A DNA stretch of 64,000 bases from Candidatus Eisenbergiella intestinipullorum. GTDB taxonomy: Bacteria > Bacillota > Clostridia > Lachnospirales > Lachnospiraceae. A program made the position numbers and the translations under genes. The notes under the pieces were generated by a model, which did no database searches, was not told the origin of the DNA, and saw only the letters and a program-made list of their open reading frames with translations. Below, piece after piece: positions 1,121 through 55,739 of the stretch (positions within the stretch are counted from its first letter, which is position 1; every line of letters starts with the position of its first letter). The stretch spans positions 130 to 64,129 of the forward strand of contig DWWH01000006.1 in NCBI GenBank assembly GCA_019119815.1, read 5' to 3'.

Positions 1121-2566
1121 TTAACCGATCAGCCAGTCGTACATCTCCTGATATTTCTTTGCGGAAACATTCCAGGAGAAATCAACAGCCATGCCTCTGT
1201 CGATGATCTTGTTCCATTCGCGCTTCTTGTCATAGTAGATCTTTTCCGCATAACGGATGGTGCCAAGCATCTCATGGGCATTGTAATTGCTGAAGCTGAA
1301 GCCCGTTCCCGTGCTCTCATATTCGTTATACGGCCATACCGTATCCTTCAGGCCGCCCGTTTCACGCACGATCGGCACCGTGCCGTAACGCAGGGCAATC
1401 AGCTGGCTCAGGCCGCAGGGCTCAAAAAGAGAAGGCATCAGGAAAGCGTCGCTGGAGGCGTAGATCCTGTGGGCCACCGCTTCGGAATAATAAATCTGTG
1501 CGGACACCTTTCCCTGATATTTCCAGGCAAAATGCCGGAACATATTTTCATAGCGCTCCTCGCCGGTTCCCAGCACAATGAGCTGGATATTGTCCTGGCA
1601 GAGCTCATCCATCACATAGGCCACCAGGTCAAAGCCCTTCTGATCGGTCAGACGGGAAACCACGCCAATCACCATGGCCTTGTCGTCCTGATTCAGTCCA
1701 AAATCAGCCTGCAGGGCACGTTTGTTTTTGATCTTTTCCTTCCGGAAGTTCACCGCGTTGAAGGTACGGGTGATAAACGGATCGGTTTCCGGATTATATT
1801 CATCATAATCAATGCCGTTCACGATACCTCTCAGATCGCCGCTTCTGGCGCGCATCAGGCCGTCCAGCCCTTCGCCGTAAAAAGGCGTCTTGATCTCCTC
1901 CGCATAGGTATTGCTCACCGTCGTAATGGCATCCGCATACACCAGGCCGCCCTTTAAGAGATTGGCATCCTTATAAGCCTCCAGCTTATCCGGTGTAAAG
2001 AATGACATGGGAAGGCCCGTGATGTCCTGTACCTCCTTAATGCTCCATTTTCCCTGGAACTTCAGGTTGTGGATCGTCATGACCGTCTTGATCCCGCGGT
2101 AAAAATCGCTCCCCTGGAATCTCTCATGCAGATAGACCGGAATCAGTCCTGTCTGCCAGTCGTGGCAATGGATCAGATCAGGCCGGAAATCGATCACGGG
2201 CAGGATGGACAGCGCCGCCTTGGAGAAAAATGCGAACTTCTCGATCTCGAACAGCGCGTTGTCACAGTAGGGCTTGAATCCGTTGAAATAAAACTCATTG
2301 TCGATGAAATAGAACTTGATGCCGTCCACTTCTGATTCCATGATTCCCACATACTGATTCTGCCAGTGGAAATCCATGTAAAAATGGGTCCTGTAGGTCA
2401 GCCGGTCCTTCATCGCCTGCGTCATGCACACATATTTCGGCAGAATCACCCGGACATCGTAATATTCCCTGTCGATGCACTTGGGCAGCGCCCCCACCAC
2501 ATCTGCCAGACCGCCTGTTTTTATGAACGGTACGCCTTCCGAAGCCACAAACAGAATTTTTTTCAT
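1121..2566 (-). CDS. glgA: Glycogen synthase (ADP-glucose type)
   Basis: N-terminus MKKILFVASEGVPFIKTGGLADVVGALPK and C-terminal ..PSLFEPCGLSQL..RYGTVPIVRETGGLKDTV are GT5 glycogen synthase signatures. ATG 2566 is preceded by GGGAGGA. Confidence 0.95.
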   Translation of the reverse strand: MKKILFVASEGVPFIKTGGLADVVGALPKCIDREYYDVRVILPKYVCMTQAMKDRLTYRTHFYMDFHWQNQYVGIMESEVDGIKFYFIDNEFYFNGFKPYCDNALFEIEKFAFFSKAALSILPVIDFRPDLIHCHDWQTGLIPVYLHERFQGSDFYRGIKTVMTIHNLKFQGKWSIKEVQDITGLPMSFFTPDKLEAYKDANLLKGGLVYADAITTVSNTYAEEIKTPFYGEGLDGLMRARSGDLRGIVNGIDYDEYNPETDPFITRTFNAVNFRKEKIKNKRALQADFGLNQDDKAMVIGVVSRLTDQKGFDLVAYVMDELCQDNIQLIVLGTGEERYENMFRHFAWKYQGKVSAQIYYSEAVAHRIYASSDAFLMPSLFEPCGLSQLIALRYGTVPIVRETGGLKDTVWPYNEYESTGTGFSFSNYNAHEMLGTIRYAEKIYYDKKREWNKIIDRGMAVDFSWNVSAKKYQEMYDWLIG

Positions 2567-2698
2567 TGTAAATCCTCCCGTAATCAATAAGAATATCCTT
2601 CTCTAAATTTCGGCTTTGTGTCTATTATACATCATCACCGCATTGAAATAAAGGACTTTTTCCCGGAAGGAAAGACGCCCCGGCCGGAGCGCAGACCC

Positions 2699-3232
2699 TC
2701 AGCCTTTGTACTGCAGGCGGATCTTGTCGGCGATCAGAGCGATGAATTCCGAATTGGTAGGCTTTCCCTTGCCGGTATTGATGGTATAGCCAAACAGAGC
2801 ATCCAGCGTCTCCATCCTTCCTCTGCTCCACGCCACCTCGATTGCATGGCGGATAGCGCGCTCCACGCGGCTGGGCGTGGTCTGATATTTTTTCGCGATG
2901 GTGGGATAGAGGACCTTTGTGATGGAGTTGAGCATTTCGATGTCCTGAACGGACATCATGATCGCCTCTCTCAGATACTGGTATCCTTTGATGTGCGCCG
3001 GAACGCCGATCTCATGAATCATATCCGTCACATCCTTTTCCAGATCGTGCGGCGGCGTCTGATGGGATGCCTGCGCAGGCTTCTCCTCCTGTGCCGTCAG
3101 CTCCGGGGCGGCCGTCCCTGCAGCCGGCACCGTGATCATGATCTGAAATTCCTGATTCGTTTTCATCAGGTCGGTCAAAATCTGGACCACTCTTTCACTG
3201 TCCTTTCCCGTATTCATACGAAGCTGTTCCAT
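2699..3232 (-). CDS. spo0A: Spo0A C-terminal (DNA-binding) domain protein lacking a receiver domain
   Basis: [72 protein letters not shown] matches the Spo0A effector domain almost residue for residue. ATG at 3232 has GGAGGA 5 nt upstream; the ORF-track GTG at 3283 is less likely. It sits immediately downstream of spoIVB, as in Bacillus. Confidence 0.85.
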
Positions 3233-3447
3233 ATTTGTCCTCCATTCATCCAAAAAACCTTTTCTTTCTGTCTGTTCCTGCACTAATTATATAAGAATGA
3301 CAAAATATGGCAACCTTCTTTCGTCGCAAAAAACGCGCTAAACCGTTATATTTCGATACGCTTCCGGCTCTCTTTCTGTCGGTTTTGTGCGAAACCGGTT
3401 GAAAAGCGGCGATAATCGACGGTTTTCGTCCGGGCTCCGGCCCGGCC

Positions 3448-4770
3448 TCAATGCCCGAGCATGTTTTCAATAAAGATCCCATACCCTTTCGTGGGGTCGT
3501 TTACCAGTACATGGGTGACTGCGCCGATCAGCTTTCCATCCTGGATGATGGGTGCGCCGCTCATGCCCTGGACAATGCCGCCGGTCAGAGCCAGAAGGCG
3601 TTCATCCGTGACGGTGATCTCAAGCCCTCTGTTCACATTGTCATGATCCAGATGGATCCCTGTGATCTCGATGGTATACAGCTCCGGTTCGCCGCCCACG
3701 CTGCACAGGATTTCCGCCTCCCCTTCTGCCACCTCCTGTTTGAGTCCGACGGGGATGGCGGAGGAGATGATCCCGTCTGTGGCTTCCTCGTCCAGGCTGC
3801 CGTAGATCCCCTCTTCGGTATTGGCCTCTATGGTTCCGATCCGGTTGCTTTCCCCATAGTCGATCACGCCGGTCAGCTCGCCGGGAGCGCCGTTTTCCCC
3901 CCTGCGGATGGCTACGATCTGCGTCTGATACAGGCTGCCGCTTTCCAGATCCATCAGCTCCGCCGTGTCCACATCGTTGATGCCGTGTCCCAGCGCGCCG
4001 AAGCTGTTGTCCTCATCCAGCCAGGTGAGCGTGCCCACGCCCTGCGCATTGTCACGGATCCAGATCCCCAGCTTGTATTCCCCGTTCTGATTCTGCTCCG
4101 GCTGAAGGCTTACGTCAAACTGCTGTCCGTCCCTCTGAATGGTCAGAAGCATCTGTTTTCCTTCGCTGTCCGCGATGCGCTGCATGAATTCCGCCTTCCC
4201 CGTCACCTCCTCTCCGTTCGCTTTCAGGATGTAGTCTCCTTCCTTCAGGAGCCTGGCTGCAGGAGCATTCATCTGCCCTTCCGGCCCTTCAAATTCCCCG
4301 GTGGCGATCACCAGGACTCCTTTCGTCTTTACATAGATGCCGATGGGAATTCCCGCCGGGATCAGGGTCCTGTCATCGATCACCTCCACCTGCACGGTCT
4401 TAAAAGGGATCAGGCCGAACAGCTTCAGCTGCATGGTATAGCTTTCCAGCTCCTGCGCATACAGTGTAAGGGGCCTGCTCAGATCCACCGGCAGGCTTTC
4501 GGAGGAAGTGCTGCCGGTCACGCTCCTTCCCACGGCCGCCACCGCTTCTTCTTTGTATCCGTCTTCTTTCTTTTCTCCCGCTTCCTCATTCCGGTAAACT
4601 TCCCCTGATGCGGGAACATTCAGGTCCAACTCCTGCTGCACGCCTGCCCGGATATGGATCATGCCGGGCACACGGTTCCACAGAAGGAACATCCAACATA
4701 TAAAAAGCGCCGCAACGGCACAGATAAGGATCAGACACAGGATCAATCTGTATTTTCGTCTCCTTTCCAA
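3448..4770 (-). CDS. spoIVB: SpoIVB peptidase (S55 family, PDZ domain)
   Basis: N-terminal TM segment, PDZ-like LLKEGDYILKANGEEV, and S55 catalytic region GVGTLTW..FGALGHGI and GMSGAPIIQDGKLIGAVTHVLVNDPTKGYGIFIENM. Synteny is recN-spoIVB-spo0A. Apparent TTG start. Confidence 0.9.
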   Translation of the reverse strand: MERRRKYRLILCLILICAVAALFICWMFLLWNRVPGMIHIRAGVQQELDLNVPASGEVYRNEEAGEKKEDGYKEEAVAAVGRSVTGSTSSESLPVDLSRPLTLYAQELESYTMQLKLFGLIPFKTVQVEVIDDRTLIPAGIPIGIYVKTKGVLVIATGEFEGPEGQMNAPAARLLKEGDYILKANGEEVTGKAEFMQRIADSEGKQMLLTIQRDGQQFDVSLQPEQNQNGEYKLGIWIRDNAQGVGTLTWLDEDNSFGALGHGINDVDTAELMDLESGSLYQTQIVAIRRGENGAPGELTGVIDYGESNRIGTIEANTEEGIYGSLDEEATDGIISSAIPVGLKQEVAEGEAEILCSVGGEPELYTIEITGIHLDHDNVNRGLEITVTDERLLALTGGIVQGMSGAPIIQDGKLIGAVTHVLVNDPTKGYGIFIENMLGH

Positions 4771-4858: not shown

Positions 4859-6544
4859 TTAGTATTGTTTTGTATGCTCTGCCATTTCTTTCAATTCTCT
4901 CGCGTTGGCAAGCGCGCTCTCTGTCAGGACATCCCCTCCCAGCATACGGGCCAGCTCCCGCTCCACCGCAGCTCCTCTGATCTCTTCGATGCAGGTGCGG
5001 GTGGTTCCGTCGCCGGATTTTTTTTCAATGACAAAATGATTGTCCGCCATGGCCGCGATCTGAGGCAGGTGGGTGATGCAGATCACCTGACGTGCCTTTC
5101 CCAGAACCGCCAGCTTCTGCGAAACCTTCCAGGCGGTTTTCCCGCTGATCCCGGTATCGATCTCGTCAAAAATGAAGGTATCCCTGTCCTCCTGGGCCGC
5201 CGTCACCGTTTTCAGGGCCAGCATGATGCGGGAAAGCTCACCGCCGCTCGCCACCTCAGACAGCGGCTTCTTCGGCTCGCCCGGATTGGTGGAGATCCGA
5301 AAGGACACCTCATCCCAACCATCGGAAGCGGGACAGTCCTTTTGGGTCAGAAGCACGTCGAAATCCACATGGCTGAAATTCAGATCGGAAAGCGCTGCGA
5401 TCAGAAGCTGCGACAGCCTTTCTCCCGCCCTGCGGCGGATGCCGGACAGCTGTGCGCACAGCCTCTCCACCTGTGCTCTTTCTTCTTCCAGCCTTCCCTG
5501 AAGCCGCTCCCGATATGCGTCCGCATCCTGCAGGCGTTCGATCTCCTGCTGCCTTTCTTCCTGGTAGCGCAGGATTTCCGGGATGGTATTTCCATATTTT
5601 TCCTTGAGACGGTTGATCAGATTCAGCCGCTCTTCCACCTGGATAAAATCCGCCTGATCAAATTCCAGGTCAGAAAGGTATTCGGACACGGAATGGTTGA
5701 AGTCGTTCAGCAGTCCTTCCATATCGGAAAGCATGGAAATCAGCTGCTCCAGCTCTTCATCACAGGCGCTGACGGAGGAAAGCTCCCGCAGGGCCCGTCC
5801 CACCGCTTCGGAAACACCTCCCTCCGTTTCCGAGCCGGTCAGCTCCCAGGCGGCGCCCACCGCCTCCGCGATGCGGCGGCTGTTTGCCATCTTCCGGTAG
5901 CGTCCCTCCAGCTGCTCATCCTCTCCTTCCTTCAGTCCGGCATCCGCGATCTCCTGCTCCTCAAAGCCCGCGAGGGAAAGGGCGCGTTCCCTCTCTCTGC
6001 TGTCCATGCTGCATTCGGCAAGCAGCTTCTGTGTCTGGCGGAATGCCTCCCAGCTTTTTTTCAGCTCCCGTTTCAGACCGGCCGCTTCCTCCCCGGCAAA
6101 ATCATCCAGGATCTCCAGGTGACGCTTGGGCTTTAACAGCTTCTGAGAGTCATGCTGACCGTGGATGTCGATGAGGATGCCGGAAAGCTCCTTTAAGAGC
6201 CTGCCGTTCACCGTCTCCCCGTTGACCCGGCTCAGACTCCTTCCGGGCAGGATGCGGCGCTGCAGGATCACCATGCCGTCTTCCTCCACGGGGATGTCAA
6301 GCGCCCTTACCCGATCCGCCTGCTCCTTCCTGTCCAGCGCAAAGACCAGCTCCACCAGCGCCTGATCCGCTCCTGTGCGGATCATATCCCTGTCGGCCCT
6401 GCCTCCAAGGGCCAGACTGACAGAACCCAGGAGGATGGATTTGCCCGCGCCCGTCTCACCGGTCAGGATGTTCAGGCCCGGGCCGAAAAAAACCTCCGTT
6501 TCCTGGATCAGCGCCAGATTTTTCACATGTAAGCTCACCAACAT
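4859..6544 (-). CDS. recN: DNA repair protein RecN
   Basis: MLVSLHVKNLALIQ..LNILTGETGAGKSILL (Walker A), long coiled coil, and C-terminal ASGGELSRIMLALK..FIFDEIDTGISG. Confidence 0.95.
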   Translation of the reverse strand: MLVSLHVKNLALIQETEVFFGPGLNILTGETGAGKSILLGSVSLALGGRADRDMIRTGADQALVELVFALDRKEQADRVRALDIPVEEDGMVILQRRILPGRSLSRVNGETVNGRLLKELSGILIDIHGQHDSQKLLKPKRHLEILDDFAGEEAAGLKRELKKSWEAFRQTQKLLAECSMDSRERERALSLAGFEEQEIADAGLKEGEDEQLEGRYRKMANSRRIAEAVGAAWELTGSETEGGVSEAVGRALRELSSVSACDEELEQLISMLSDMEGLLNDFNHSVSEYLSDLEFDQADFIQVEERLNLINRLKEKYGNTIPEILRYQEERQQEIERLQDADAYRERLQGRLEEERAQVERLCAQLSGIRRRAGERLSQLLIAALSDLNFSHVDFDVLLTQKDCPASDGWDEVSFRISTNPGEPKKPLSEVASGGELSRIMLALKTVTAAQEDRDTFIFDEIDTGISGKTAWKVSQKLAVLGKARQVICITHLPQIAAMADNHFVIEKKSGDGTTRTCIEEIRGAAVERELARMLGGDVLTESALANARELKEMAEHTKQY

Positions 6545-6564: not shown

Positions 6565-7029
6565 CTATTTTCCCAGGATGCGGCGGATCTTTTCCATGAC
6601 TGCCCTCGTATCCTCCACGCTGCGGATTGCCATCATGATGGTATCATCTCCTGCGATGCAGCCCACGATCTCCTGAAACTTCATGGCGTCCACCGCGGCG
6701 GCCACCGCCATGGCCATGCCGGATACGGTCTTGATCACCAGGATGTTCTGGGCCATATCCATGGAAACGAAGCCGTCCTTCAGCACACGCACATATTTGT
6801 CCCACAGATGGCTGTCATCCTGCTTTAATACCACATATTTCTGGCGGCCGTTGCCCGCCGGCACCTTGGACAGGTGAAGCTGCCTGATGTCCCTGGAGAT
6901 CGTGGACTGGGTCACCGCAAAGCCTGCTTCCTTCAGCCGGTCGGCAAGCTCCTCCTGCGTTTCGATCTCGCTGTTTTCCACCAGTTCCACGATTTTTTCC
7001 TGTCTGCTCTGTTTCATCCGTCTACTCAC
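6565..7029 (-). CDS. argR: Arginine repressor
   Basis: 154 aa with winged-helix N-terminus (QEELADRLKEAGFAVTQSTISRDI) and C-terminal GCIAGDDTIM oligomerisation/arginine-binding motif. Adjacent to recN as in Bacillus (ahrC). Confidence 0.9.
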   Translation of the reverse strand: MSRRMKQSRQEKIVELVENSEIETQEELADRLKEAGFAVTQSTISRDIRQLHLSKVPAGNGRQKYVVLKQDDSHLWDKYVRVLKDGFVSMDMAQNILVIKTVSGMAMAVAAAVDAMKFQEIVGCIAGDDTIMMAIRSVEDTRAVMEKIRRILGK

Positions 7030-20031: not shown

Positions 20032-21099
20032 TTATCTGCTGTTTAGCGAAATGTAAAACGCCTCCTTCAAAAGCGGCTCCAGCGTGTTTTCGTTATAGGA
20101 TTCCATGGCAGGGTACACCACATCCAGAAGGTAATACGTCCAGTATTCCGTAAAATCCCCGCATACCCGGTCCCCGATCCGGTCATTTCCAAGGCGGAAT
20201 TCTTCATAAGCAGCCGCATACAGCTTTTCTGTGGCGAGGGAAATCCTGTAAAGCTCTCTGCGATCCTGCAGATACCGCTCGCAGGTCGTCCCGCATTCTT
20301 TCAGGGCCGTTTCAAACTCCGCAAAGTTGGATGCCTCTCGTATACGGGCTGTTATCTCCTCAAGCCTGTTGTCTATTTCTTCTTCCGTCGGCGCATATCC
20401 CTTCTGCAGCGCATACTGATACTGGTCCATCCGCTGCGTCAATTCCTCTGCCGCAGCTTCAAGCGCCTCCTTCTCCGTCTCCCACAGCTTCCTCTGCGTC
20501 CGCATTTCGTCCGCAAAAAGAGCACGCATATCCCCGGTACTGAAGAAAACGCCCATTTCTTTCAGCCGCCCGGTCAGTTCCGCCGATTGTTTCAGTTCAT
20601 CCGGTTCCATAAACAGTGCAAACCCTTCCTGCGGCTCCGGGCCGAAAGCTGCCTCTTCGATGTTCACATAATCCGTGATAAAACCGGCCCCTTCAAATAT
20701 CCTTCCATCCCCGGTCTGCAGATACCAGTCCTCCCCGTCCTCCGGACGAAAAAAGAACAGATTCTCTTTCTCTCCGTTTTCGTAGCCAAGCGTAACCACC
20801 AGATAATCCTTTTCCCGCCGGATTTCTCTCTTTTCCACCTGATCCGCCCGGCTGATGCTTTCCAAGTTCTCCAGAAAAGTTTCAAAATCTGCCGTTCCGG
20901 CGGGCGGATAATTCTTGATCCCGTTGATCTGAATCGTTTCCACCGCCCTTTGCGAATGGTGCACGAAAGCAGGCAGAGGGGAATCCGCCGTCTGGGTTCC
21001 ATCCGGCTCCTGTGTCTCATCCTGTGCCGTTCCGCATGCCGCCTCCTCAGCCGACGGGCTGCCGGAGGCCGTCAGCCCTTCCGTCTGATACCTGTTCAT
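20032..21099 (-). CDS. Hypothetical protein, no recognisable domain
   Basis: Long ORF with protein-like composition and a helical C-terminal half. There is no Shine-Dalgarno before ATG 21099 or the TTG at 21114, and no signal peptide. It overlaps the stop of the truncated receiver ORF. Confidence 0.4.
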   Translation of the reverse strand: MNRYQTEGLTASGSPSAEEAACGTAQDETQEPDGTQTADSPLPAFVHHSQRAVETIQINGIKNYPPAGTADFETFLENLESISRADQVEKREIRREKDYLVVTLGYENGEKENLFFFRPEDGEDWYLQTGDGRIFEGAGFITDYVNIEEAAFGPEPQEGFALFMEPDELKQSAELTGRLKEMGVFFSTGDMRALFADEMRTQRKLWETEKEALEAAAEELTQRMDQYQYALQKGYAPTEEEIDNRLEEITARIREASNFAEFETALKECGTTCERYLQDRRELYRISLATEKLYAAAYEEFRLGNDRIGDRVCGDFTEYWTYYLLDVVYPAMESYNENTLEPLLKEAFYISLNSR

Positions 21100-21335
21100 A
21101 CAGCAGATACACAAATTCTTTCCGCGAGCTCCCTGCCGTCCATCTGCGGCATCTCGATATCCAGAAAACAGATGTCATATTCTCTCTTTTCCAGGAACTC
21201 CCAGTACAACAGCTCCGGGTTTTGATAAATGTCTATTTCGCATAAAACCGTTTTCCGGGCCAGACAGTTTCCGATCAGCTCTTTCATGAGAGCCAGAAAT
21301 TCCGCCTCTTCATCCACCAGACATATTCTCAACAT
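21096..21335 (-). pseudogene. Truncated response-regulator receiver domain (LytTR-type N-terminus), 79 aa
   Basis: MLRICLVDEEAEFL...YDICFLDIEMPQMDGRELAERI covers beta1-alpha3 of a receiver (acidic pocket plus phospho-acceptor D). It stops before beta4/beta5 and has no output domain. Good SD (GAGGGAAGGAA) before ATG 21335. Confidence 0.6.
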
Positions 21336-21517
21336 TTCCTTCCCTCTTAAAGCCGGTTTTTCCCTATTTGATTTATCCTATCACATTTTCATGGCTTTAC
21401 GGCCGTGATGTCATAAACAGACCATTTTTGTCATTTAAATCTCTATTCCGCAGCGTCACTATCCTGCCCTCAGGCTGTGGATCTAATATGGGAACGGAAA
21501 ATCCTTCCTGTTACTTT

Positions 21518-22405: not shown

Positions 22406-23266
22406 TCAGCCTCCGGAAACGGGGCTGATGATGATGTTCTCCGGGGCGATCCCGGTTTTTCTGGTGACGATGTCCTCAATCTGGGCGCGCTGGGCGTCGG
22501 TGAGGGAGGAAGCGTTCACCACCACGTCCACCATGGTGCCGCTGATGCTGACCACCACGTCGGTAAAGCCCTTGGCCTCCAGCAGGATCTCGGCGGCGGT
22601 TTCCTTTTCGGCCATGTCGGTCAGGCTGATCATGCCGTTGATGGCATCCTGTTTCTGCTCTTCGCTGATGTTTTCATTATTGATGATGTCCAGCAGGGTT
22701 TCCTTGTTTCTCGCCCTGGTCTGCTCCTTCTGGAGCTTGGCGCCGGCGAGGGAGCTGATTCCGGCGGAGCTGGTGAAAACGGCTTCGCCCGGCGTGCCGC
22801 TGTCTGATACGCTGCCTTCCTCCTGCGCGAGCTCCGCGCTGGCCTCGTCGACGGCCTCGGCCGCTACGGCCACGTCCGCCTGCACCTCGCCGGAAAGGGC
22901 TGCTTCTTCCTGTCCGGTCTGCACATCTGCCTGCGCCTCTTCGGCAAGGTCACCGTCTGTTTCTTCGGAAAGAGCCGTGTCCGCCGCCATGGTCTCATCC
23001 AGGTAGTTTTCCACAGAAACGGCCTCCTGATCGGAATCCAGGCTCTCGATGTCGGTGACCTCCGCGCTGTCCAGATCGGATACGATGTCCTCCTCCGAAA
23101 GATCCAGAAGGGCGGTCATATCCTCTTCCTCTGCGTTTTGCGCATCCGCACTCGCAAGCTGCTCCTGCCCCGCTTTTGTCCCGGCGAAATTCAGATATCC
23201 CGCCACGGCGATCATGATCGCCAGAGCCGTAATCATAATCTGATTGCGTTTCAACACATTTTTCAC
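22406..23266 (-). CDS. spoIIIAH: Stage III sporulation protein AH
   Basis: MKNVLKRNQIMITALAIMIAVAGYLNF (TM), acidic linker, C-terminal YscJ/FliF-like domain. Last gene of the spoIIIA operon. Confidence 0.85.
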   Translation of the reverse strand: MKNVLKRNQIMITALAIMIAVAGYLNFAGTKAGQEQLASADAQNAEEEDMTALLDLSEEDIVSDLDSAEVTDIESLDSDQEAVSVENYLDETMAADTALSEETDGDLAEEAQADVQTGQEEAALSGEVQADVAVAAEAVDEASAELAQEEGSVSDSGTPGEAVFTSSAGISSLAGAKLQKEQTRARNKETLLDIINNENISEEQKQDAINGMISLTDMAEKETAAEILLEAKGFTDVVVSISGTMVDVVVNASSLTDAQRAQIEDIVTRKTGIAPENIIISPVSGG

Positions 23267-23287
23267 TCCTGTTCCCTCTGCTTTCTG

Positions 23288-23938
23288 CTATTTCATCTTA
23301 ACTACTTTAATCTTATGAGCCTCCAGATCAAATAATGCCTCAATCACTTCGGTTATGTTTTTCTGAATCAGCGGGTCTCCTCCTCCCTGGGCAACCACGG
23401 TCACGCCCTCGATTTCCGGCTGTGTGGTCTGAGAAATATAGGGGGCCTTGTTTCCGTCCGGGTCCGTGATGTACACCGTGCTTTCCTCCCTTCTGGCGCT
23501 CTGTGACTGTCTGGTTCCGCCCGCGCTGTCCGTCTCGCTGGTCTGTTCCGATTCCGAAGGCGCATCCTTCTCCACCACCTGCTGGCCCGAGGCTCGGATG
23601 GTGACCATCACCTTCGTCTCTCCCACGCCTTCCATGGCGGACAGAAGCTCTTCCAGCTGCTTTTCCATTTTTTCTGCATACCCCGCCTCCCCTGCCATGC
23701 CGTTTTTCATTCCGGCAGTACCTGCGCCAGACTCCTGCTGTTCTGAAACAAACGATTTCTGCATCTCTTCTTCCGGAAGAGTTTCCTGCGCATTTTCTTC
23801 CTGTCTCCCTCCCACGGGGATGGCGATCACCATGAGCAGAAGCCCAAGAAGAGCCACCACCGCCATGTTTTCCCGGGTGAGCTTTTTCTTCCATTTTGCC
23901 AGGCTTTTTATCCTGTTTTCCGCTCTGTGTTCATCCAT
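23288..23938 (-). CDS. spoIIIAG: Stage III sporulation protein AG
   Basis: TM segment, then ..PEIEGVTVVAQGGGDPLIQKNITEVIEALFDLEAHKIKVVKMK, the typical SpoIIIAG C-terminus. Confidence 0.85.
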   Translation of the reverse strand: MDEHRAENRIKSLAKWKKKLTRENMAVVALLGLLLMVIAIPVGGRQEENAQETLPEEEMQKSFVSEQQESGAGTAGMKNGMAGEAGYAEKMEKQLEELLSAMEGVGETKVMVTIRASGQQVVEKDAPSESEQTSETDSAGGTRQSQSARREESTVYITDPDGNKAPYISQTTQPEIEGVTVVAQGGGDPLIQKNITEVIEALFDLEAHKIKVVKMK

Positions 23939-24539
23939 CCAGGATCACCTCCAGCTTTTCCGGCTCCATGCCAAGCTCCTGCGCCAGGGCAGCCTTAAGC
24001 TCCCGGCCCTCCTCCGCCCGCGCTGCGGCATCATTTTCCTGTTCCTCCGGCGTTTCCGTCCCGGTATCACCCGCCCGGATCCGGTCCACTTCAACCCGGT
24101 CAATGGAAATTTCATCCTCCGCTTCATTTTCCACGTCGTTCCCGCTTTTCAGTGTCAGACAGAGAATGCCGTCCTCATCCAGGGAGGCGGATGTCAGCCG
24201 GACGCCCCATTCTGCGCAGAGGCCGTCAAGCCGTTCGGAAACCGCCCCTTCCAGACCATCCTGCGTGAAGCTGCCCTCCTTCAGCTCCGCCTGCTCCACC
24301 TGGCTTTCAATCCGCCGCATTTCCTGCTCATACTCCTCCAGCGCCCCGGAAAAAACCGCCTCCGCGTCAAAGCCGCCCAGAGAGAGCAGGGGAAGGGCGA
24401 GCCGGGAAAGCACCATGACGCCGATGAGAATCCGCGCGTACTTTTCATAGCCGCCCTCCGGCAGAAAGCGCAGGATCACCTGTCCGGCCAGGAGAAATAT
24501 GGTAATGCTTTTTAACAGTTCCAGGAAACCGCTTCCCAT
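23931..24539 (-). CDS. spoIIIAF: Stage III sporulation protein AF
   Basis: Two N-terminal TM helices (ITIFLLAGQVILRFLP.., ARILIGVMVLSRLALPLL). Position is between AE and AG. Confidence 0.8.
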   Translation of the reverse strand: MGSGFLELLKSITIFLLAGQVILRFLPEGGYEKYARILIGVMVLSRLALPLLSLGGFDAEAVFSGALEEYEQEMRRIESQVEQAELKEGSFTQDGLEGAVSERLDGLCAEWGVRLTSASLDEDGILCLTLKSGNDVENEAEDEISIDRVEVDRIRAGDTGTETPEEQENDAAARAEEGRELKAALAQELGMEPEKLEVILDG

Positions 24540-24553
24540 AAGCCTCCCCCTTT

Positions 24554-25624
24554 TCAGCGGAGCGTCCCCGCCAGACAGGTGATGATGGCGAACAGAATCA
24601 GAAAGCAGGCCAGCGCGGTAAAAACGATCCGAAGCAGCACGAATACCGCGTCGCCCGCCCTGTCGATACAGCCCGTCAGCCGCTTATCCGCGCTCAGTCC
24701 AAGCAGCCCGGCGCACAGCTTCAGAATCGCCCCATACAGAAAGAGTTTTAAAAAAGGAACGATGCACAGAGCGAGCAGAAGAAGAATGGCGGCCGCGCCA
24801 AGCCCGTTTTTGATGAGGACCGCGGAGCCGAGCAGAAGCTGGGCCGTCCCCTCTGCCAGCCCTCCCAGGCCCGGAATGGCGGACAAAAGCTTTGCAGCGG
24901 AGGTGAGCTTCAGGCTTTCCAGCACAGGGGAAACCATGGACTGAAGAAGGCCGATGCCCGTGATGCAGGTCAGTAAAAATTTCAGGCCTCCGGCCAGCGC
25001 CTTTTTCATGAGATCAATGAGGGAGGAAAGCTTCTCCTCCTCCCACAGTCCGTTCATCACCACCAGCATCATATAGACATCCGCCGCGGGCAGACCGACG
25101 CTCATCAAAAGCTGCTCCACCCCATAGATCAGAAGCAGGATCAGCTCATAATATCCGGCCGCCGTCATCGTTCCGGCAGAAAGTCCCAGCGCAATCATGA
25201 AAGTGGGAAGAAAAAGGCGGACGAAAAGAAGGATTTTTTCAAGCAGGGCTTCCGCGATGCCTGCCGCCTGGGAAAAGGTGGAAAGCACGATGAGGAGTAT
25301 CAGCAGACAGGCAACAAAGTGCGCAATATCCGCGATCTGATGGTTTTTGAAGGCCTGTGCCGCAACCGTGAACAGAGACGAGAGGATTCCCGCCAGAAGG
25401 AGCAGCAGAAACAGGTTCCGCATTCCCGCGGCCTCTCCGATTATCCCGTCCTTCAGCGAAGCAAAAAGCAGGTTTCCTGCCTCCTTCCATCTGCCCGCAA
25501 GAAGCAGCCCCAGAAAACCCGAAAAATCAATGGAAAAGCCGGGAAACAGCTCCTGCATCCGCTCCGACATCGCGTCCAGATTCAGTTCCCCAAGCAGCCC
25601 GTCCTGTTCCACTTTTACCTCCAT
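24554..25624 (-). CDS. spoIIIAE: Stage III sporulation protein AE
   Basis: Polytopic membrane protein of 356 aa with the SpoIIIAE-like repeated TM pattern, in the expected operon position. Confidence 0.9.
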   Translation of the reverse strand: MEVKVEQDGLLGELNLDAMSERMQELFPGFSIDFSGFLGLLLAGRWKEAGNLLFASLKDGIIGEAAGMRNLFLLLLLAGILSSLFTVAAQAFKNHQIADIAHFVACLLILLIVLSTFSQAAGIAEALLEKILLFVRLFLPTFMIALGLSAGTMTAAGYYELILLLIYGVEQLLMSVGLPAADVYMMLVVMNGLWEEEKLSSLIDLMKKALAGGLKFLLTCITGIGLLQSMVSPVLESLKLTSAAKLLSAIPGLGGLAEGTAQLLLGSAVLIKNGLGAAAILLLLALCIVPFLKLFLYGAILKLCAGLLGLSADKRLTGCIDRAGDAVFVLLRIVFTALACFLILFAIITCLAGTLR

Positions 25625-25635
25625 GTCGAAGCGTT

Positions 25636-26022
25636 TCAGCTCATAAAGCCCGCGATGGTTTCAACCAGAGAAAGAAAAACGGGCATTCCCGCCAGCAGCA
25701 CCGCCGTTTTTCCAAACAGCTCCACCTGCGCCGCGATGGACGAAAAGCCCGCGTCCCGGCACAGTCCGGCGCAAAACTCGCTCAGCCAGGTGATTCCCAC
25801 CACCTTAAACAGAATTCCCAGATACTCTCCGCTGCCGGACAGGCGGTTTCCAAAGGCGGAAACCGCTTCCTTCATCTGCCCCAGATAAGCGCCTGCATGG
25901 GAAAAAATCAGGACCGATACGGCTATCCCAAGCAAAATGCCGTATTCCTGCTTCCCGCTTTTAACCAGAAGCCCGGTCAGCACTCCCACAATTCCCAGCA
26001 GGGCAACTCTCACCACATCCAT
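25636..26022 (-). CDS. spoIIIAD: Stage III sporulation protein AD
   Basis: 128-aa four-TM protein; MDVVRVALLGIVGVLTGLLVKSGKQEYG.. is typical of SpoIIIAD. Confidence 0.85.
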   Translation of the reverse strand: MDVVRVALLGIVGVLTGLLVKSGKQEYGILLGIAVSVLIFSHAGAYLGQMKEAVSAFGNRLSGSGEYLGILFKVVGITWLSEFCAGLCRDAGFSSIAAQVELFGKTAVLLAGMPVFLSLVETIAGFMS

Positions 26023-26091
26023 GCCGCACCTCCCTCCTGCCGCCCGGGGGCAGTATTCCTTCCTGCAAGCCCCGCTTTCCCATCACACGGC

Positions 26092-26286
26092 TCACAGCTC
26101 AAACAGATTCTGCACGGAAACGAACAGATCATAAATATAAGGGATGATCCAGGTCAGCACCAGAATCAGCCCGGCGAGGGAAAGCAGAAAGGCATGCTCT
26201 TCCCTCCCGCTGTGCTTCAGGATCTGGCTCAATATGGTGACCAGAATGCCCACGGCCGCTATTTTAAAAATCAGACCTATTTCCAT
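26092..26286 (-). CDS. spoIIIAC: Stage III sporulation protein AC
   Basis: 64 aa: MEIGLIFKIAAVGILVTILSQILKHSGREEHAFLLSLAGLILVL... ATG 26286 is preceded by GAGGAGG. The longer ORF-track start is not credible. Confidence 0.85.
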   Translation of the reverse strand: MEIGLIFKIAAVGILVTILSQILKHSGREEHAFLLSLAGLILVLTWIIPYIYDLFVSVQNLFEL

Positions 26287-26296
26287 TCCTACCTCC

Positions 26297-26815
26297 TCAG
26301 AAAAGCAGGATGGCAAGCAGAAGCCCCGCCGCCGCGCTGATGGACAGAATCGTTTTTTTCCCGCTCCCGGCGGCGTGCCGCGCCGTCTCCTTTGCCTGGG
26401 ACATCTCGCCCGCGAACTGCTCCAGCGCGGCCAGCTGCATCCGTCCATCCACAAAGCCCGTATACTCCGGGAATGTCATCACAAGCTCCTTTTCCCTGCC
26501 CCCAAGGCTGGTCCGTTTCAGATATTCCGGCATCTGCTCCTCCCATGCCTCCTTCAGAGTAATGCCCGGCTCCGCGCGCACCCGTGAGCCGATCCGGCAG
26601 AGGCAGTCTCCCAGCGTTCCTTCCAGGCGGCTGCCCACCCGGAGAAGCCCGTCCGGCAGAGTCAGGCGGCTGTAGCCCACCTCGCTCTCCAGCATGACGA
26701 AGGTCCTCTCCAGAAGCTTCAGCTGTTCCGCCCGCCTTTCCAGATCCCGCCAGACACACCAGCCGAACCCGGAGGAACCCGCGATGAGCAGGCAGGCGCC
26801 GACAAGCCTCAGCAT
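26297..26815 (-). CDS. spoIIIAB: Stage III sporulation protein AB
   Basis: 172 aa starting MLRLVGACLLIAGSSGFGW, with a C-terminal TM segment. Overlaps the spoIIIAA stop. Confidence 0.8.
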   Translation of the reverse strand: MLRLVGACLLIAGSSGFGWCVWRDLERRAEQLKLLERTFVMLESEVGYSRLTLPDGLLRVGSRLEGTLGDCLCRIGSRVRAEPGITLKEAWEEQMPEYLKRTSLGGREKELVMTFPEYTGFVDGRMQLAALEQFAGEMSQAKETARHAAGSGKKTILSISAAAGLLLAILLF

Positions 26816-27852
26816 ACGCCGCTCCAGAGGCTGTTTCCATCCCTGTCCAGCACGGAAACCCTTCTCCCCTGCCCCTTTCTTTCGGGGCAGCCTTCTCTTT
26901 CGGAGCGGCCTCCTGCTCCGGCACATTCTCTTCGTTCAAAGCAGCCTTCTCCGCCGGCGCCTCCCCTTCCGGAAAGCAGCACATATCTGGAAAATACGGA
27001 GGCTCCCGTCCCGAACAGCCTCTCCTGCGCCTCCCGGATATTTCCCGCGTGCATGGTTGCAAGCACCGCGCAGCCGCATTTCAGAGCCTGGCGCACGGAT
27101 TTAAGCTCCTCCTCGCCTCCCAGCTCATCTACGGCGATCACCTCCGGCGCCATGGACCGAAGCAGAAGCATCATCCCCTCCGCCTTCGGGCAGCCGTCCA
27201 GCACGTCCGTGCGCATTCCCACGTCGTTCTGCGCCATGCCGTGAAAGGAACCCGCGATTTCCGACCGTTCATCCACCACCCCCACCGTTCTTCCGGCGCA
27301 GAAACGGTTTCCGTCGGAAATCTGACGCACCAGATCCCGCAGCAGCGTGGTTTTCCCGCATCCTGGCGGAGAAAGAATCAGAACATTCAGCGGCCTTCCC
27401 TCTTCACAGACCCAGGGAAGCACTCTGTCCGCCGCCCCCCTGATCTCATGGGAGATCCGGATATTCATTCCGGATATGTATTTCAGATTTCTCACCTTTC
27501 CGCCGTCGGTCAGAACCGCTTCTCCCACCAGCCCCATCCTGTGCCCGCCCGGCAGGGTGAGATACCCTCTGCTGATCTCCTCCTCATATGCGTACATGGA
27601 GCTGCTGCACACATAGGACAGAAGCTCCTCCAGCTCCGCCCGGTCCGCCCGCACGGCCTGTCCCTCCTGTCCCGTCAGTTCTCCTGCCCCGGTCAGAAAA
27701 TATTCCCTTCCTTCCATATATAGAAGGACCGGCCTTTCGGCGCGCAGCCGGATCTCCTGAAGCCGCTCTCCCTGTTCTGCCGCCTTCTTCCACCGGTTTC
27801 TCATGCTTTCCGGAAAAATCCGGAGAATATCCTCCCTGACTGCCATTTTCAT
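26809..27852 (-). CDS. spoIIIAA: Stage III sporulation protein AA (secretion-type ATPase)
   Basis: MKMAVREDILRIFPE.., Walker A SPPGCGKTTLLRDL, VIAVDELG Walker B. First gene of the operon. A Gly/Arg/Glu-rich tail precedes the conserved ..VSVLDRDGN end. Confidence 0.9.
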   Translation of the reverse strand: MKMAVREDILRIFPESMRNRWKKAAEQGERLQEIRLRAERPVLLYMEGREYFLTGAGELTGQEGQAVRADRAELEELLSYVCSSSMYAYEEEISRGYLTLPGGHRMGLVGEAVLTDGGKVRNLKYISGMNIRISHEIRGAADRVLPWVCEEGRPLNVLILSPPGCGKTTLLRDLVRQISDGNRFCAGRTVGVVDERSEIAGSFHGMAQNDVGMRTDVLDGCPKAEGMMLLLRSMAPEVIAVDELGGEEELKSVRQALKCGCAVLATMHAGNIREAQERLFGTGASVFSRYVLLSGRGGAGGEGCFERRECAGAGGRSEREGCPERKGQGRRVSVLDRDGNSLWSGVC

Positions 27853-50747: not shown

Positions 50748-50894
50748 ATGATGCCCCCTGGGATTTCTTTGAAATCCCAGCCCATTCGGAATCCGCCCCT
50801 GCGGGGCTCCTTCCTCATGGGAGGCAGGTGCCAAGGGCAGCCGTTCCTCCATGCAAGCATGGGAACGGCTGTCTTTGGCACCCTGGGGCATCAT
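50748..50894. ncRNA. Predicted four-helix structured element at the polC 3' end (function and strand unknown)
   Basis: 10-bp closing helix ATGATGCCCC (50748-57) / GGGGCATCAT (50885-94) enclosing three abutting hairpins: 50758-50780, 50781-50821 and 50827-50882. Hand-folded only. Confidence 0.3.
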
Positions 50895-53800
50895 ATGGCA
50901 AAATCAAATAGACTGATCTGGTTGGATTCGGGGAGGTCTCCGAGGAGGTGGAGGGAATCCATCAGGTCTACCACGGTCTTGGAGACTTTGGTGCGGTCGC
51001 GGAAGTCGTCTTTGGAGAGGAACGGGCCGTCCTTGGCCGCTTCCACGATGGCGTCGGCGGCTTTTTCGCCGAGGCCGTCGATGCTGTTTAAGGAGGGCAT
51101 GATCTTGTCGCCCACGATCTGGAAGCTCCGGGACTGGGCCTGGAAGATGTCGATGGGAACGAAGTCATAGCCTCTGGCATACATTTCCTGTACCACCTTC
51201 ATGTCCTTCGCGGTGTCCTGTTCCTTTTTGGAAAGGCTGTCCGAGCGTTTTTTATAATCCGCCATGACCGCCTCCAGGTGGGAACGTCCCTGGCACATGA
51301 TCTCGTAGGAGAAGGCGGAGGCGCGGATGCTGAAGTAGGCCGCATAGTAGGCGAGGGGATAGTTCACCTTGCAGTAGGCGATCCTCCAGGCCATCATGAC
51401 GTAGGCCGCCGCGTGGGCCTTGGGGAACATGTATTTGATTTTCTTGCAGGACCAGATGTACCAGTCCGGCACGCCTGCGGCCACCATGGCCTCTTCCATT
51501 TCCGGCTTCAGGCCCTTTCCCTTACGGACGCTCTCCATGATGGTGAAGGCCAGGCTGCTTTCCACTCCCATGCTGATCAGGTAGATCATGATGTCGTCAC
51601 GGGTACAGATGGCGGTGGAAATGGTGGCTTTTCCTTCCTTGATCAGCGTCTGGGCATTTCCCAGCCACACGTCCGTTCCGTGGGCAAGGCCGGCGATACG
51701 GACCAGATCGGAAAAGGAGGTGGGCTTGGTGTCCAGAAGCATCTGCATGGCGAATTCGGTGCCGAACTCAGGAACGCCCAGATTTCCCAGGGGCCAGCCG
51801 TCGATGTCGTCCGGGGTGATTCCCAGCGCCGAGGTGTTCTGGAAAAGGGACATGACCTGCTTGTCATCCAGCGGGATCTTCGTGGGGTCCAGGCCGGTCA
51901 GGTCCTGGAGCATGCGGATCATGGTAGGATCATCGTGTCCCAGAATGTCCAGCTTCAGCAGGTTGTGATCGATGGAGTGGTAATCAAAATGAGTGGTCAC
52001 CGTGTCCGTGGTCATGTCGTTTGCTGGATGCTGCACCGGGGTAAAGGAATTGATCTCCTCTCCCAGCGGCAGCACGATGATGCCGCCCGGATGCTGTCCG
52101 GTACTTCTGCGGATGCCCGTGCAGCCCGTAACGATCCGGTTGATCTCACAGGTGCGTTTCTTATTCCCCCGCTCTTCGTAATAATTTTTCACATAGCCGA
52201 AGGCGGTCTTGTCCGCCAGGGTGGCAATGGTTCCGGCGCGGAAGGTCTGTCCGGCGCCGAAGATCACCTCCGTGTATTTGTGCGCCTTACTCTGGTATTC
52301 CCCGGAGAAGTTCAGGTCAATATCCGGCTCCTTGTCGCCCTTGAAGCCCAGGAAGGTCTCAAAGGGAATATCAAAGCCGTCCTTTTTCAAAAGCTCCCCG
52401 CAGACCGGGCAGTATTTGTCCGGCATGTCGCAGCCCGCCCGTCCTGAGTAGGCCTTCACTTCCGGGGAATCAAAATCGCTGTAATGGCATTTCATACAGT
52501 AGTAGTGGGGACTTAAGGAGTTGACCTCCGTGATTCCCGCCATATAGGCCACCAGAGAAGAGCCCACCGAACCTCTGGAGCCCACCAGATAGCCGTCCTC
52601 CACCGATTTCCACACCAGCTTCTGGGCGATGATGTACATCACGGCGAAGCCGTTGGTGATGATGGAATGCAGCTCCTTCTGCAGCCGCTCCTCCACGATG
52701 GGAGGCAGGTTTTCCCCATACAGGGAATGGGCCTTGCTGTAGCAGATGTCGGTCAGCGTCTTGTCGCTGTCCGGAATCACAGGCGGACATTTGTCCGGCC
52801 GCACCGGGGAAATGGTCTCGATCTGGTCCGCGATCAGGTTGGTATTGGTGATCACCACTTCTTCGGCCTTGTCGCTCCCCAGATACTCGAATTCCTTCAG
52901 CATCTCCTCCGTGGTGCGCAGATACAGGGGCGCCTGATCCTCCGAATCCTTGAAGCCCTTGCCCGCCATGATGATCCGGCGGTACACCTCGTCCGCAGGA
53001 TCCAGAAAATGCACGTCGCAGGTGGCCACAACCGGTTTGTTGTACTGTTCTCCCAGATGCACGATCCGGCGGTTGATGTTCTGAATATCCTCGATGGAGT
53101 TGACCAGACGGATCTTTTCATCATTAATCATGAAGGCGTTGTTTCCCGTGGGCTGGATCTCCAGATAGTCATAGAAGTCCACGATCCGCGCAATATCCGC
53201 CTCGCTCTTTTCATCCAGCAGGGCACGATACAGCTCTCCCGCTTCGCAGGCGCTTCCCAGGATCAGCCCCTCCCTGCACTTTAACAGCAGGCTCTTGGGA
53301 ATCCTGGGCCGCTTCGCGTAATAGGTCAGATGGGATTCGGAGATCAGCCGGTACAGGTTCACCCGGCCCGTGTTGTTTTTCGCCAGGATGATGGCATGGT
53401 AGGTGGGAAGGCGTTTGACGATGTCCGGATTGGAATCGCCCAGCGCGTTCACCTTTTCCAGCGTGTCCCTTCCATCCTCATGAAGCATCCTGCTGAAACG
53501 GACGAAAATCTCCGCCGTGGCCTCCGCGTCGTCCACCGCCCGGTGATGATTTTCCAGAGAAATTCCCAGCGTTTTTGCCACCGCGTCCAGGGTATGCTTC
53601 GCCTGGTGGGGAAGAAGCACTCTGGCGATGCCCACCGTATCCACATAAGTATATTCAAAAGGCAGAGAAAGCCCTGCCGCGTTCTCCCGGATAAAGCTGG
53701 TATCGAAGCCCGCGTTGTGTGCCACCAGCACACAGTCCTCGCAGAAGGCCAGAAACTCCGGCAGCACCTCCCCGATGGGAGCCGCTCCCGCCACCATCTC

Positions 53801-55687: not shown

Positions 55688-55739
55688 CTTTTCCTCCATT
55701 CCGTACCGCCGGATTTTGCCCTGGCACTGCATCAGACGG

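Follow-up and report, generated by a model that had tools for sequence, protein, structure and literature searches.

The spo0A locus of Candidatus Eisenbergiella intestinipullorum

The window analyzed here is a 64,000-nucleotide stretch of DNA from the chicken-gut bacterium Candidatus Eisenbergiella intestinipullorum (contig DWWH01000006.1), and the gene in question is a short version of spo0A, which encodes a sporulation transcription factor with a complete DNA-binding domain but only a fragment of the phospho-receiver domain. On the minus strand of the window, the genes run in the order argR-recN-spoIVB-spo0A-glgA, with a spacer of 215 nt between spoIVB and spo0A. A preliminary description of this DNA, made from the letters alone, had reported a short spo0A open reading frame (ORF) of about 177 codons with GGAGGA 5 nt before an ATG at 3232, and reading of the ORF and of the sequence confirms both the frame and the ribosome-binding site (RBS). 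The features of the locus are as follows.

2699..3232, minus strand: short spo0A coding sequence, 177 codons plus stop (ORF reading of the window)
3238..3243, minus strand: RBS GGAGGA, 5 nt before the spo0A ATG (from the sequence)
3125..3232, minus strand: receiver remnant, beta1-alpha1-beta2, codons 1-36 (alignment to full-length receivers)
3053..3124, minus strand: variable Pro/Ala/Gln/Glu-rich linker, codons 37-60 (unalignable among relatives)
2702..3052, minus strand: complete Spo0A effector (DNA-binding and transcription-activation) domain, codons 61-177 (PF08769, 1FC3/1LQ1)
2675..2692, minus strand: terminator-like hairpin directly 3' of the spo0A stop (consensus scan)
3448..4770, minus strand: spoIVB, intact, upstream neighbor (Peptidase_S55, 283 bits; TIGR02860, 361 bits against a cut-off of 305)
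4859-6544, minus strand: recN, upstream of spoIVB
6565-7029, minus strand: argR, upstream of recN
1121..2587, minus strand: glgA, glycogen synthase, downstream neighbor (Glyco_transf_5, 276 bits)

The C-terminal part of the short protein had been described as a near-canonical Spo0A effector domain, and the domain searches bear this out. The only Pfam domain found in the protein is Spo0A_C (PF08769), which is matched over model positions 1-104 of 104 with 160 bits (E 1.9e-47). The NCBIfam model TIGR02875 (spore_0_A) gives 210.6 bits, above its equivalog cut-off of 200, with only model positions 126-260 of 262 matched. Residues 61-176 align without gaps to the crystallized effectors 1FC3 (E 2.6e-52) and 1LQ1 (E 3.8e-50), the recognition-helix sequence being identical to both, and by a hand count from the alignments the effector is about 75% identical to the crystallized domains of B. 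subtilis and G. stearothermophilus. AlphaFold2 models the effector with pLDDT values of 85-95 over most of the domain. Thus, by its recN-spoIVB-spo0A-glgA context, its effector domain and its equivalog score, the gene is a spo0A orthologue at the canonical locus, as had been proposed.

Since the window stems from a metagenome-assembled genome (MAG), an assembly or gene-calling artefact, such as a collapsed region or a wrong start, could in principle account for so short a gene. However, the start codon is the ATG at 3232-3230 and the stop-to-stop frame adds merely 18 codons upstream of it, while the GGAGG-like RBS and an ATGGAA start are conserved across the short-form loci of the clade (described below) when their upstream regions are aligned. 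Moreover, the identical protein, deposited at NCBI as HJC55942.1 ('sporulation transcription factor Spo0A', Candidatus Eisenbergiella intestinipullorum), is found with the same neighbors in 83 blocks of independent assemblies. Orthologues occur in hundreds more, that of Candidatus Eisenbergiella pullistercoris in 164 blocks, including contigs of more than 1 Mb and 'tig...' contigs, which are taken to be long-read assemblies. We therefore regard the artefact explanation as effectively refuted, its probability being close to nil.

A remnant of the receiver and an internal deletion

The Pfam search (E values up to 0.01) returned no Response_reg (PF00072) match in the short Spo0A. A receiver hidden Markov model (HMM) built from 56 full-length Spo0A proteins of Lachnospiraceae was searched against the window and 28 short loci, each in all six frames. 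At the window locus the model scored 12 bits over positions 3-38, corresponding to the first 36 codons of the spo0A ORF only, and it found zero matches in the six frames of the 215-nt spoIVB-spo0A spacer, so that the earlier statement that this gap holds no receiver-like sequence stands. In all 28 short loci the model matched from positions 2-5 to positions 35-58. Beyond this remnant it remained empty within the 3-10 kb flanks of the 28 loci, the full-length controls scoring 193-208 bits.

To which part of the receiver the remnant corresponds is clear from the alignments. When only the N-terminal parts were compared by hhalign, residues 1-32 of the short form paired with receiver residues 1-32 (probability 95%, E 3.3e-8), and residues 1-36 align residue for residue with the first 32-36 residues of full-length Lachnospiraceae receivers. 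The N-terminal sequence of one full-length neighbor (L022), aligned with the short-form consensus, reads as follows: MGKLNVAIADDNERMLRLLGDIIRTDEELEVVGTAKDG. The short N-terminal segment, which had been thought to be possibly the last helix of the receiver, is thus beta1-alpha1-beta2, and its assignment as the last helix is ruled out by its hhalign placement at receiver positions 1-32. Of the acidic pair, only D11 is left, D10 being replaced (by K in the window). The missing segments carried the phospho-acceptor Asp (in VVLLD), the Thr/Ser (in ISA) and the Lys (in KPF), equivalent to positions Asp56, Thr84 and Lys108. The preliminary view that there is no receiver fold therefore holds as far as the Asp, Thr and Lys motifs and the unmatched Response_reg model are concerned, but has to be amended in that D11 of the acidic pocket and residues 1-36 remain.

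Because residues 1-36 align to receiver positions 1-32/36, the event was an in-frame internal deletion rather than a loss of the N-terminus, and it took about 90 of about 125 receiver residues, roughly alpha2-alpha5. Alignment with relatives, by which the preliminary description had hoped to define a deletion, has thus revealed one, although it is internal, in frame and about 90 residues long, and not an N-terminal truncation. The original start codon and RBS survive, as probably does the whole linker.

The linker is unalignable among relatives, with lengths from about 20 to about 100 aa, and AlphaFold2 gives residues 36-60 pLDDT values below 50. In three database proteins (P0043, P0045 and P0046) it has grown to about 60-100 Gly/Ala/Ser-rich residues; in these, the linker takes large changes in length while remnant and effector stay conserved. 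In the AlphaFold2 monomer the remnant forms a helix at residues 12-24 (pLDDT 53-69), with its strands unpaired.

The two unpaired beta strands in the monomer model, together with a conservation of the remnant beyond that expected of a relic (see below), would fit a split receiver in which alpha2-alpha5 are encoded separately and reassemble in trans with residues 1-36. Yet neither the 64-kb window nor the flanks of the 28 short loci yielded a complementary fragment, and the sole other receiver-like ORF of the window (21099-21377) is not Spo0A-like and spans beta1-alpha3, which is not the missing part. In addition, the acidic-pocket residue D10 is replaced in the remnant, and we know of no split receiver domain. 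We consider this arrangement highly improbable.

Distribution, age and selection of the short form

The short form is common among the closest relatives of the window protein. Of the 120 best-matching database clusters (clustered at 90% identity; matches at 74-95% identity), 115 have a protein of 168-199 aa with Spo0A_C only. The other five (237-281 aa) were considered as longer forms and set aside as upstream start miscalls or linker expansions with the same N-terminus inside. We also scanned the GTDB species representatives, for which 80 loci were listed, the best 80 of 599 matches. The short form, here 171-197 aa, is present in at least 18 species (18 of the 80 loci among the matches listed), comprising Acetatifactor spp. 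and other Lachnospiraceae from mouse, rabbit, deer and other animals, with one cultured mouse isolate among them. In the remaining readable loci among the 80, about 155-170 residues precede the HEIGVPAH motif, as expected of a normal receiver plus linker; these loci belong to Blautia, Ruminococcus, Marvinbryantia, Fusicatenibacter, Roseburia, Dorea, Lacrimispora, Hungatella and other genera. The short architecture recurs in representatives down to 55% identity (P0188). We conclude that short spo0A genes belong to a clade of Lachnospiraceae that includes Eisenbergiella, Acetatifactor and relatives.

A neighbor-joining (NJ) tree of the C-domain (110 residues) groups 17 of the 18 short forms in an exclusive clade. 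The most divergent short form (L034, 57% identity) falls outside; since it shares the same remnant and the same junction, we attribute this placement to a long branch, though L034 may instead stem from an independent deletion.

Among the 18 short genes, synonymous differences have reached saturation (pS 0.84 for the remnant and 0.76 for the effector), with ratios of nonsynonymous to synonymous differences (pN/pS) of 0.23 and 0.10, respectively. The few less-saturated pairs give nonsynonymous to synonymous rate ratios (dN/dS) of about 0.16 for the remnant and about 0.04 for the effector. Remnant and effector have thus both been under purifying selection ever since an ancient deletion. Within the short clade, the mean pairwise identity of the remnant is 64%, compared with 45% for the same 36 residues of intact receivers, while in the C-domain the two sets reach similar identities (89% in the short and 81% in the full-length set), and the beta2 stretch of the remnant is almost invariant in the short clade. 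Judged by these comparisons, the conservation of the remnant looks like a new constraint and not like a decaying relic.

The genomic context places the short genes in the ancestral position of spo0A. Downstream of spo0A lies glgA in 16 of 17 short loci and in 42 of 63 full-length loci; the order argR-recN-spoIVB-spo0A-glgA is also found in L001-L005, and full-length Lachnospiraceae genes share these neighbors. The short genes are thus spo0A orthologues and not an independent paralogous family. The preliminary description had envisaged that relatives might reveal a widespread short family unrelated to sporulation control: the short form is indeed widespread, but its members are orthologues at the ancestral locus, and no independent family is involved.

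A different explanation would be that a second, full-length spo0A lies elsewhere in these genomes, the short protein being a phosphorylation-independent competitor or co-activator at 0A boxes. Receiver-less proteins and proteins with tandem Spo0A_C domains (P0121 and P0126) do exist in public data. However, it is the short gene that holds the ancestral spo0A position, and spo0A is normally single-copy. A weaker point in the same direction is that, among the best 80 of 599 matches, which include full-length genes down to 59% identity, no more than one locus comes from any of the 17 short-form assemblies. We therefore judge a second copy to be quite improbable.

Several variations were observed around the gene. 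The linkage of spoIVB and spo0A has been broken repeatedly within the clade: one short-form lineage (L090-L093, P0106) has a GH3 glycoside hydrolase upstream of spo0A instead of spoIVB, and many Acetatifactor-type loci have no spoIVB within 4 kb, with glgA still downstream. In Candidatus Eisenbergiella pullistercoris (L086-L089), the spoIVB-spo0A spacer measures about 1.1 kb as against 215 nt in the window; it opens with a Clostridiales-1 RNA (RF01699; L086 1875-2000; 53.5 bits, above the gathering score), and the rest is without an obvious gene. The public-metagenome proteins of the kind of P0121 (439 aa) and P0126 (243 aa) lack a receiver and consist of Spo0A_C domains in tandem, two to four per protein. 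Many further public proteins of about 170-190 aa join Spo0A_C to unrelated N-termini, some of them probably gene-call artefacts, and P0158 looks like a different, degenerate receiver remnant.

The sporulation program of the short-form clade

The preliminary description had noted an intact spoIVB and a complete spoIIIA operon in the same window, and both are indeed intact by their Pfam and TIGR02860 matches. The operon lies as follows.

22406..27852, minus strand: spoIIIAA-AH operon, complete (Pfam Spore_III_AA, SpoIIIAC (x2), Spore_III_AE, Spore_III_AF, SpoIIIAH)

Two ORFs of the operon have no Pfam match and were assigned by position as AB (26289-27062) and AG (23288-23938). Elsewhere in the clade, an intact spoIVB (47-57% identity) lies upstream of short spo0A in four diverged members (L007, L010, L012 and L013), and a cotF gene pair located downstream is 76-78% identical in five clade species. 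To our knowledge, spoIVB, spoIIIAA-AH and cotF have no role outside sporulation. That such sporulation-only genes have been kept over a divergence that saturated synonymous sites argues that sporulation is still under selection, and makes it unlikely that receiver loss was a first step of sporulation loss. This alternative, raised earlier, fits poorly with the depth of the clade, its saturated sites, the signature of purifying selection and the intact spoIVB and cotF genes.

The clade might nonetheless be non-sporulating, or sporulate only rarely, and keep its short Spo0A for stationary-phase, metabolic or biofilm regulation, with receiver loss marking a release from the sporulation decision circuit. 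Here, too, the intact spoIVB, spoIIIAA-AH and cotF genes in the window and in members across the saturated synonymous divergence speak to the contrary. Furthermore, many gut Lachnospiraceae that are called non-sporulating form spores under other conditions. The records for E. tayi point both ways: stool treated chemically and with heat so as to select endospore formers yielded this species (PMC10655253), which argues against a non-sporulating clade, but PMC5741734 tabulates its type strain as 'spore formation -' (citing Amir et al.), which argues for one. Also in favor are the 40 non-spore-formers among 118 Spo0A-encoding organisms (Galperin et al. preprint) and the caution that the presence of spo0A is no proof of sporulation (Browne et al.). 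Phenotype data on sporulation in the clade are thin and mixed. On balance, we hold it unlikely that the short Spo0A serves a non-sporulating clade, but this is the most serious of the competing explanations.

A clade-specific promoter box upstream of short spo0A

Two candidate regulatory features precede the gene in the window.

3286..3313, minus strand: candidate sigma-70-type promoter, TTGCCA-16 nt-TATAAT, 11/12 consensus (consensus match only)
3322..3327, minus strand: candidate GCG[AG][TC]G box, 8-10 nt upstream of the -35 hexamer (conserved in the short clade)

When the upstream regions of the short-form loci are aligned, many of them show the same TTGC...TATAAT pattern. Of 20 such regions (L006-L021, L034 and L086 aligned), 17 contain the GCGRYG hexamer. 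The full arrangement GCGRYG-N6-12-TTGH occurs in 12 of the 20 short-form regions compared with 3 of 42 full-length loci (Fisher p 1.6e-5), shuffled sequences averaging 0.3 in 20. The box is a candidate regulator-binding site, and its sharing among short-form promoters is consistent with a rewired input into spo0A. Autoregulation through 0A boxes was also considered and rejected: the canonical box (TGNCGAA) is not enriched upstream of short spo0A, with 4 occurrences in 20 regions against 2.2 expected.

Other features of the window

Just downstream of the spoIIIA operon region, the minus-strand frame at 21099-21377 (93 codons) carries an unrelated receiver domain of which only the first two-thirds are present (35 bits over Response_reg positions 1-65 of 111), the phospho-Asp segment DICFLDIEMP among them. 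The frame then runs into a stop, sharing 16 nt with a 360-aa ORF at 20032-21114 on the same strand that has no confident family. It may be a frameshifted or truncated response regulator. As a hidden Spo0A receiver it was rejected, being unrelated, truncated and limited to beta1-alpha3.

The window further contains an ORF for a PolC-type DNA polymerase III at 50891-55732 on the minus strand, with its Pfam domains in the usual order. It is 1613 aa long; a typical PolC, at about 1430-1450 aa, is noticeably shorter.

A Spo0A that may act independently of phosphorylation

In B. subtilis, the unphosphorylated receiver inhibits the effector, and the sad67 deletion or full removal of the receiver results in phosphorylation-independent activity. 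The preliminary description had argued from this that a receiver-less Spo0A would be uncoupled from its kinases. The orthologous position at the canonical locus, the absence of the phospho-acceptor Asp and of the Thr and Lys, and the intact local sporulation genes support this argument, and we infer from them that the short Spo0A works independently of phosphorylation. Taken together, we think it fairly probable that the gene is a true spo0A orthologue that lost its receiver by one ancient in-frame deletion and is naturally phosphorylation-independent.

How such a protein might operate can be outlined as follows. The short spo0A would be expressed from its own predicted promoter, RBS and terminator. 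Because the phospho-acceptor and an intact inhibitory receiver fold are both gone, the effector, by analogy with B. subtilis, would be permanently 'unlocked', binding 0A boxes and activating transcription without a kinase or phosphorelay. If the protein is constitutively competent in this way, the sporulation decision would move to the amount of Spo0A or to proteins acting on Spo0A, and the conserved box adjoining the -35 hexamer would be a candidate input. The remnant probably took on a new role, the leading candidates being constitutive self-association, which would replace the phospho-dependent dimerization of the receiver, and the docking of a regulator, for which it could offer a surface, alpha1 being the helix that kinases classically contact. 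As a third possibility, the remnant might retain some contact with the effector.

Several points weigh against this reading. First, any role of the remnant is speculative, because the AlphaFold2 monomer is of moderate confidence in this part and lacks paired strands. Second, phospho-dependent dimerization contributes to promoter binding in B. subtilis, so that a receiver-less Spo0A may be a weaker or a qualitatively different regulator. Third, canonical 0A boxes show no enrichment in front of short spo0A, and fourth, there is the tabulated spore-negative E. tayi type strain. For the phosphorylation-independent Spo0A taken to its full extent, that is, a whole gut Lachnospiraceae clade that sporulates by means of an unphosphorylatable Spo0A, with the kinases and phosphorelay replaced by transcriptional or protein-protein control and the receiver stub co-opted for dimerization or docking, our expectation is more tentative and falls somewhat short of even.

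Comparison with known systems and significance

With canonical Spo0A (B. subtilis, C. difficile; TIGR02875), the short form shares the spoIVB-adjacent locus, the complete effector, a variable linker and the homologous first 36 residues. It differs in lacking about 90 receiver residues including Asp56, Thr84 and Lys108, and cannot accept phosphate. The protein is thus Spo0A by effector, equivalog score and locus, but fails the defining feature of a response regulator, a phosphorylatable receiver.

The closest parallels are laboratory constructs, namely Spo0A-sad67, with which the short form shares an in-frame receiver deletion, and the isolated C-domain, with which it shares a free effector; by analogy, both would predict phosphorylation-independent DNA binding and activation. 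Unlike these constructs, the short form occurs in nature, throughout a clade, and has been maintained in evolution. About 90 residues are deleted, far more than in sad67 (about 19 residues), and the conserved beta-alpha-beta remnant sets the short form apart from the isolated C-domain, which lacks it. GerE, a NarL/LuxR-type helix-turn-helix protein without a receiver and a separate late-sporulation regulator, likewise consists mostly of a response-regulator output domain and is controlled by its own expression, but it belongs to another effector fold and family and is not a receiver-deleted orthologue of a master regulator. The atypical regulators with an aspartate-less receiver (ALR; e.g. ChxR; PMC4395418) are also descendants of response regulators that act without phosphorylation. 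In these, however, the receiver fold is complete and the Asp is substituted, whereas the short form keeps 36 of about 120 receiver residues; the short Spo0A is not an ALR, because the receiver fold itself is deleted and not merely its Asp substituted.

Spo0A, the master regulator of sporulation, is the textbook response regulator. In the canonical view, all endospore formers activate Spo0A by phosphorylating a conserved receiver Asp (review PMC11210211), and a census of sporulation genes describes Spo0A as a receiver (REC) plus a DNA-binding domain, with no exceptions noted (Galperin et al. preprint). No receiver-less Spo0A orthologue is described in the full-text literature that we searched, which included the census preprint, a MAG sporulation study and the initiation review, and the portion of the Browne et al. 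2021 supplements that we consulted has no Eisenbergiella or Acetatifactor entries.

A natural, selected Spo0A without a phospho-Asp would run counter to the rule that all endospore formers phosphorylate Spo0A, and would do so in a clade found widely in the guts of chickens, mice, rabbits, ruminants and humans. It would open to experiment the long-standing question of what phosphorylation adds beyond the relief of inhibition and dimerization. Scoring genomes for the presence or absence of spo0A fails to tell the short form apart, its PGAP label being plain Spo0A, and searches for a 'sporulation kinase' in these taxa may chase something nonexistent. Lastly, the 36-residue remnant provides a compact case of a domain fragment that has outlived its parent domain, possibly with a new function.

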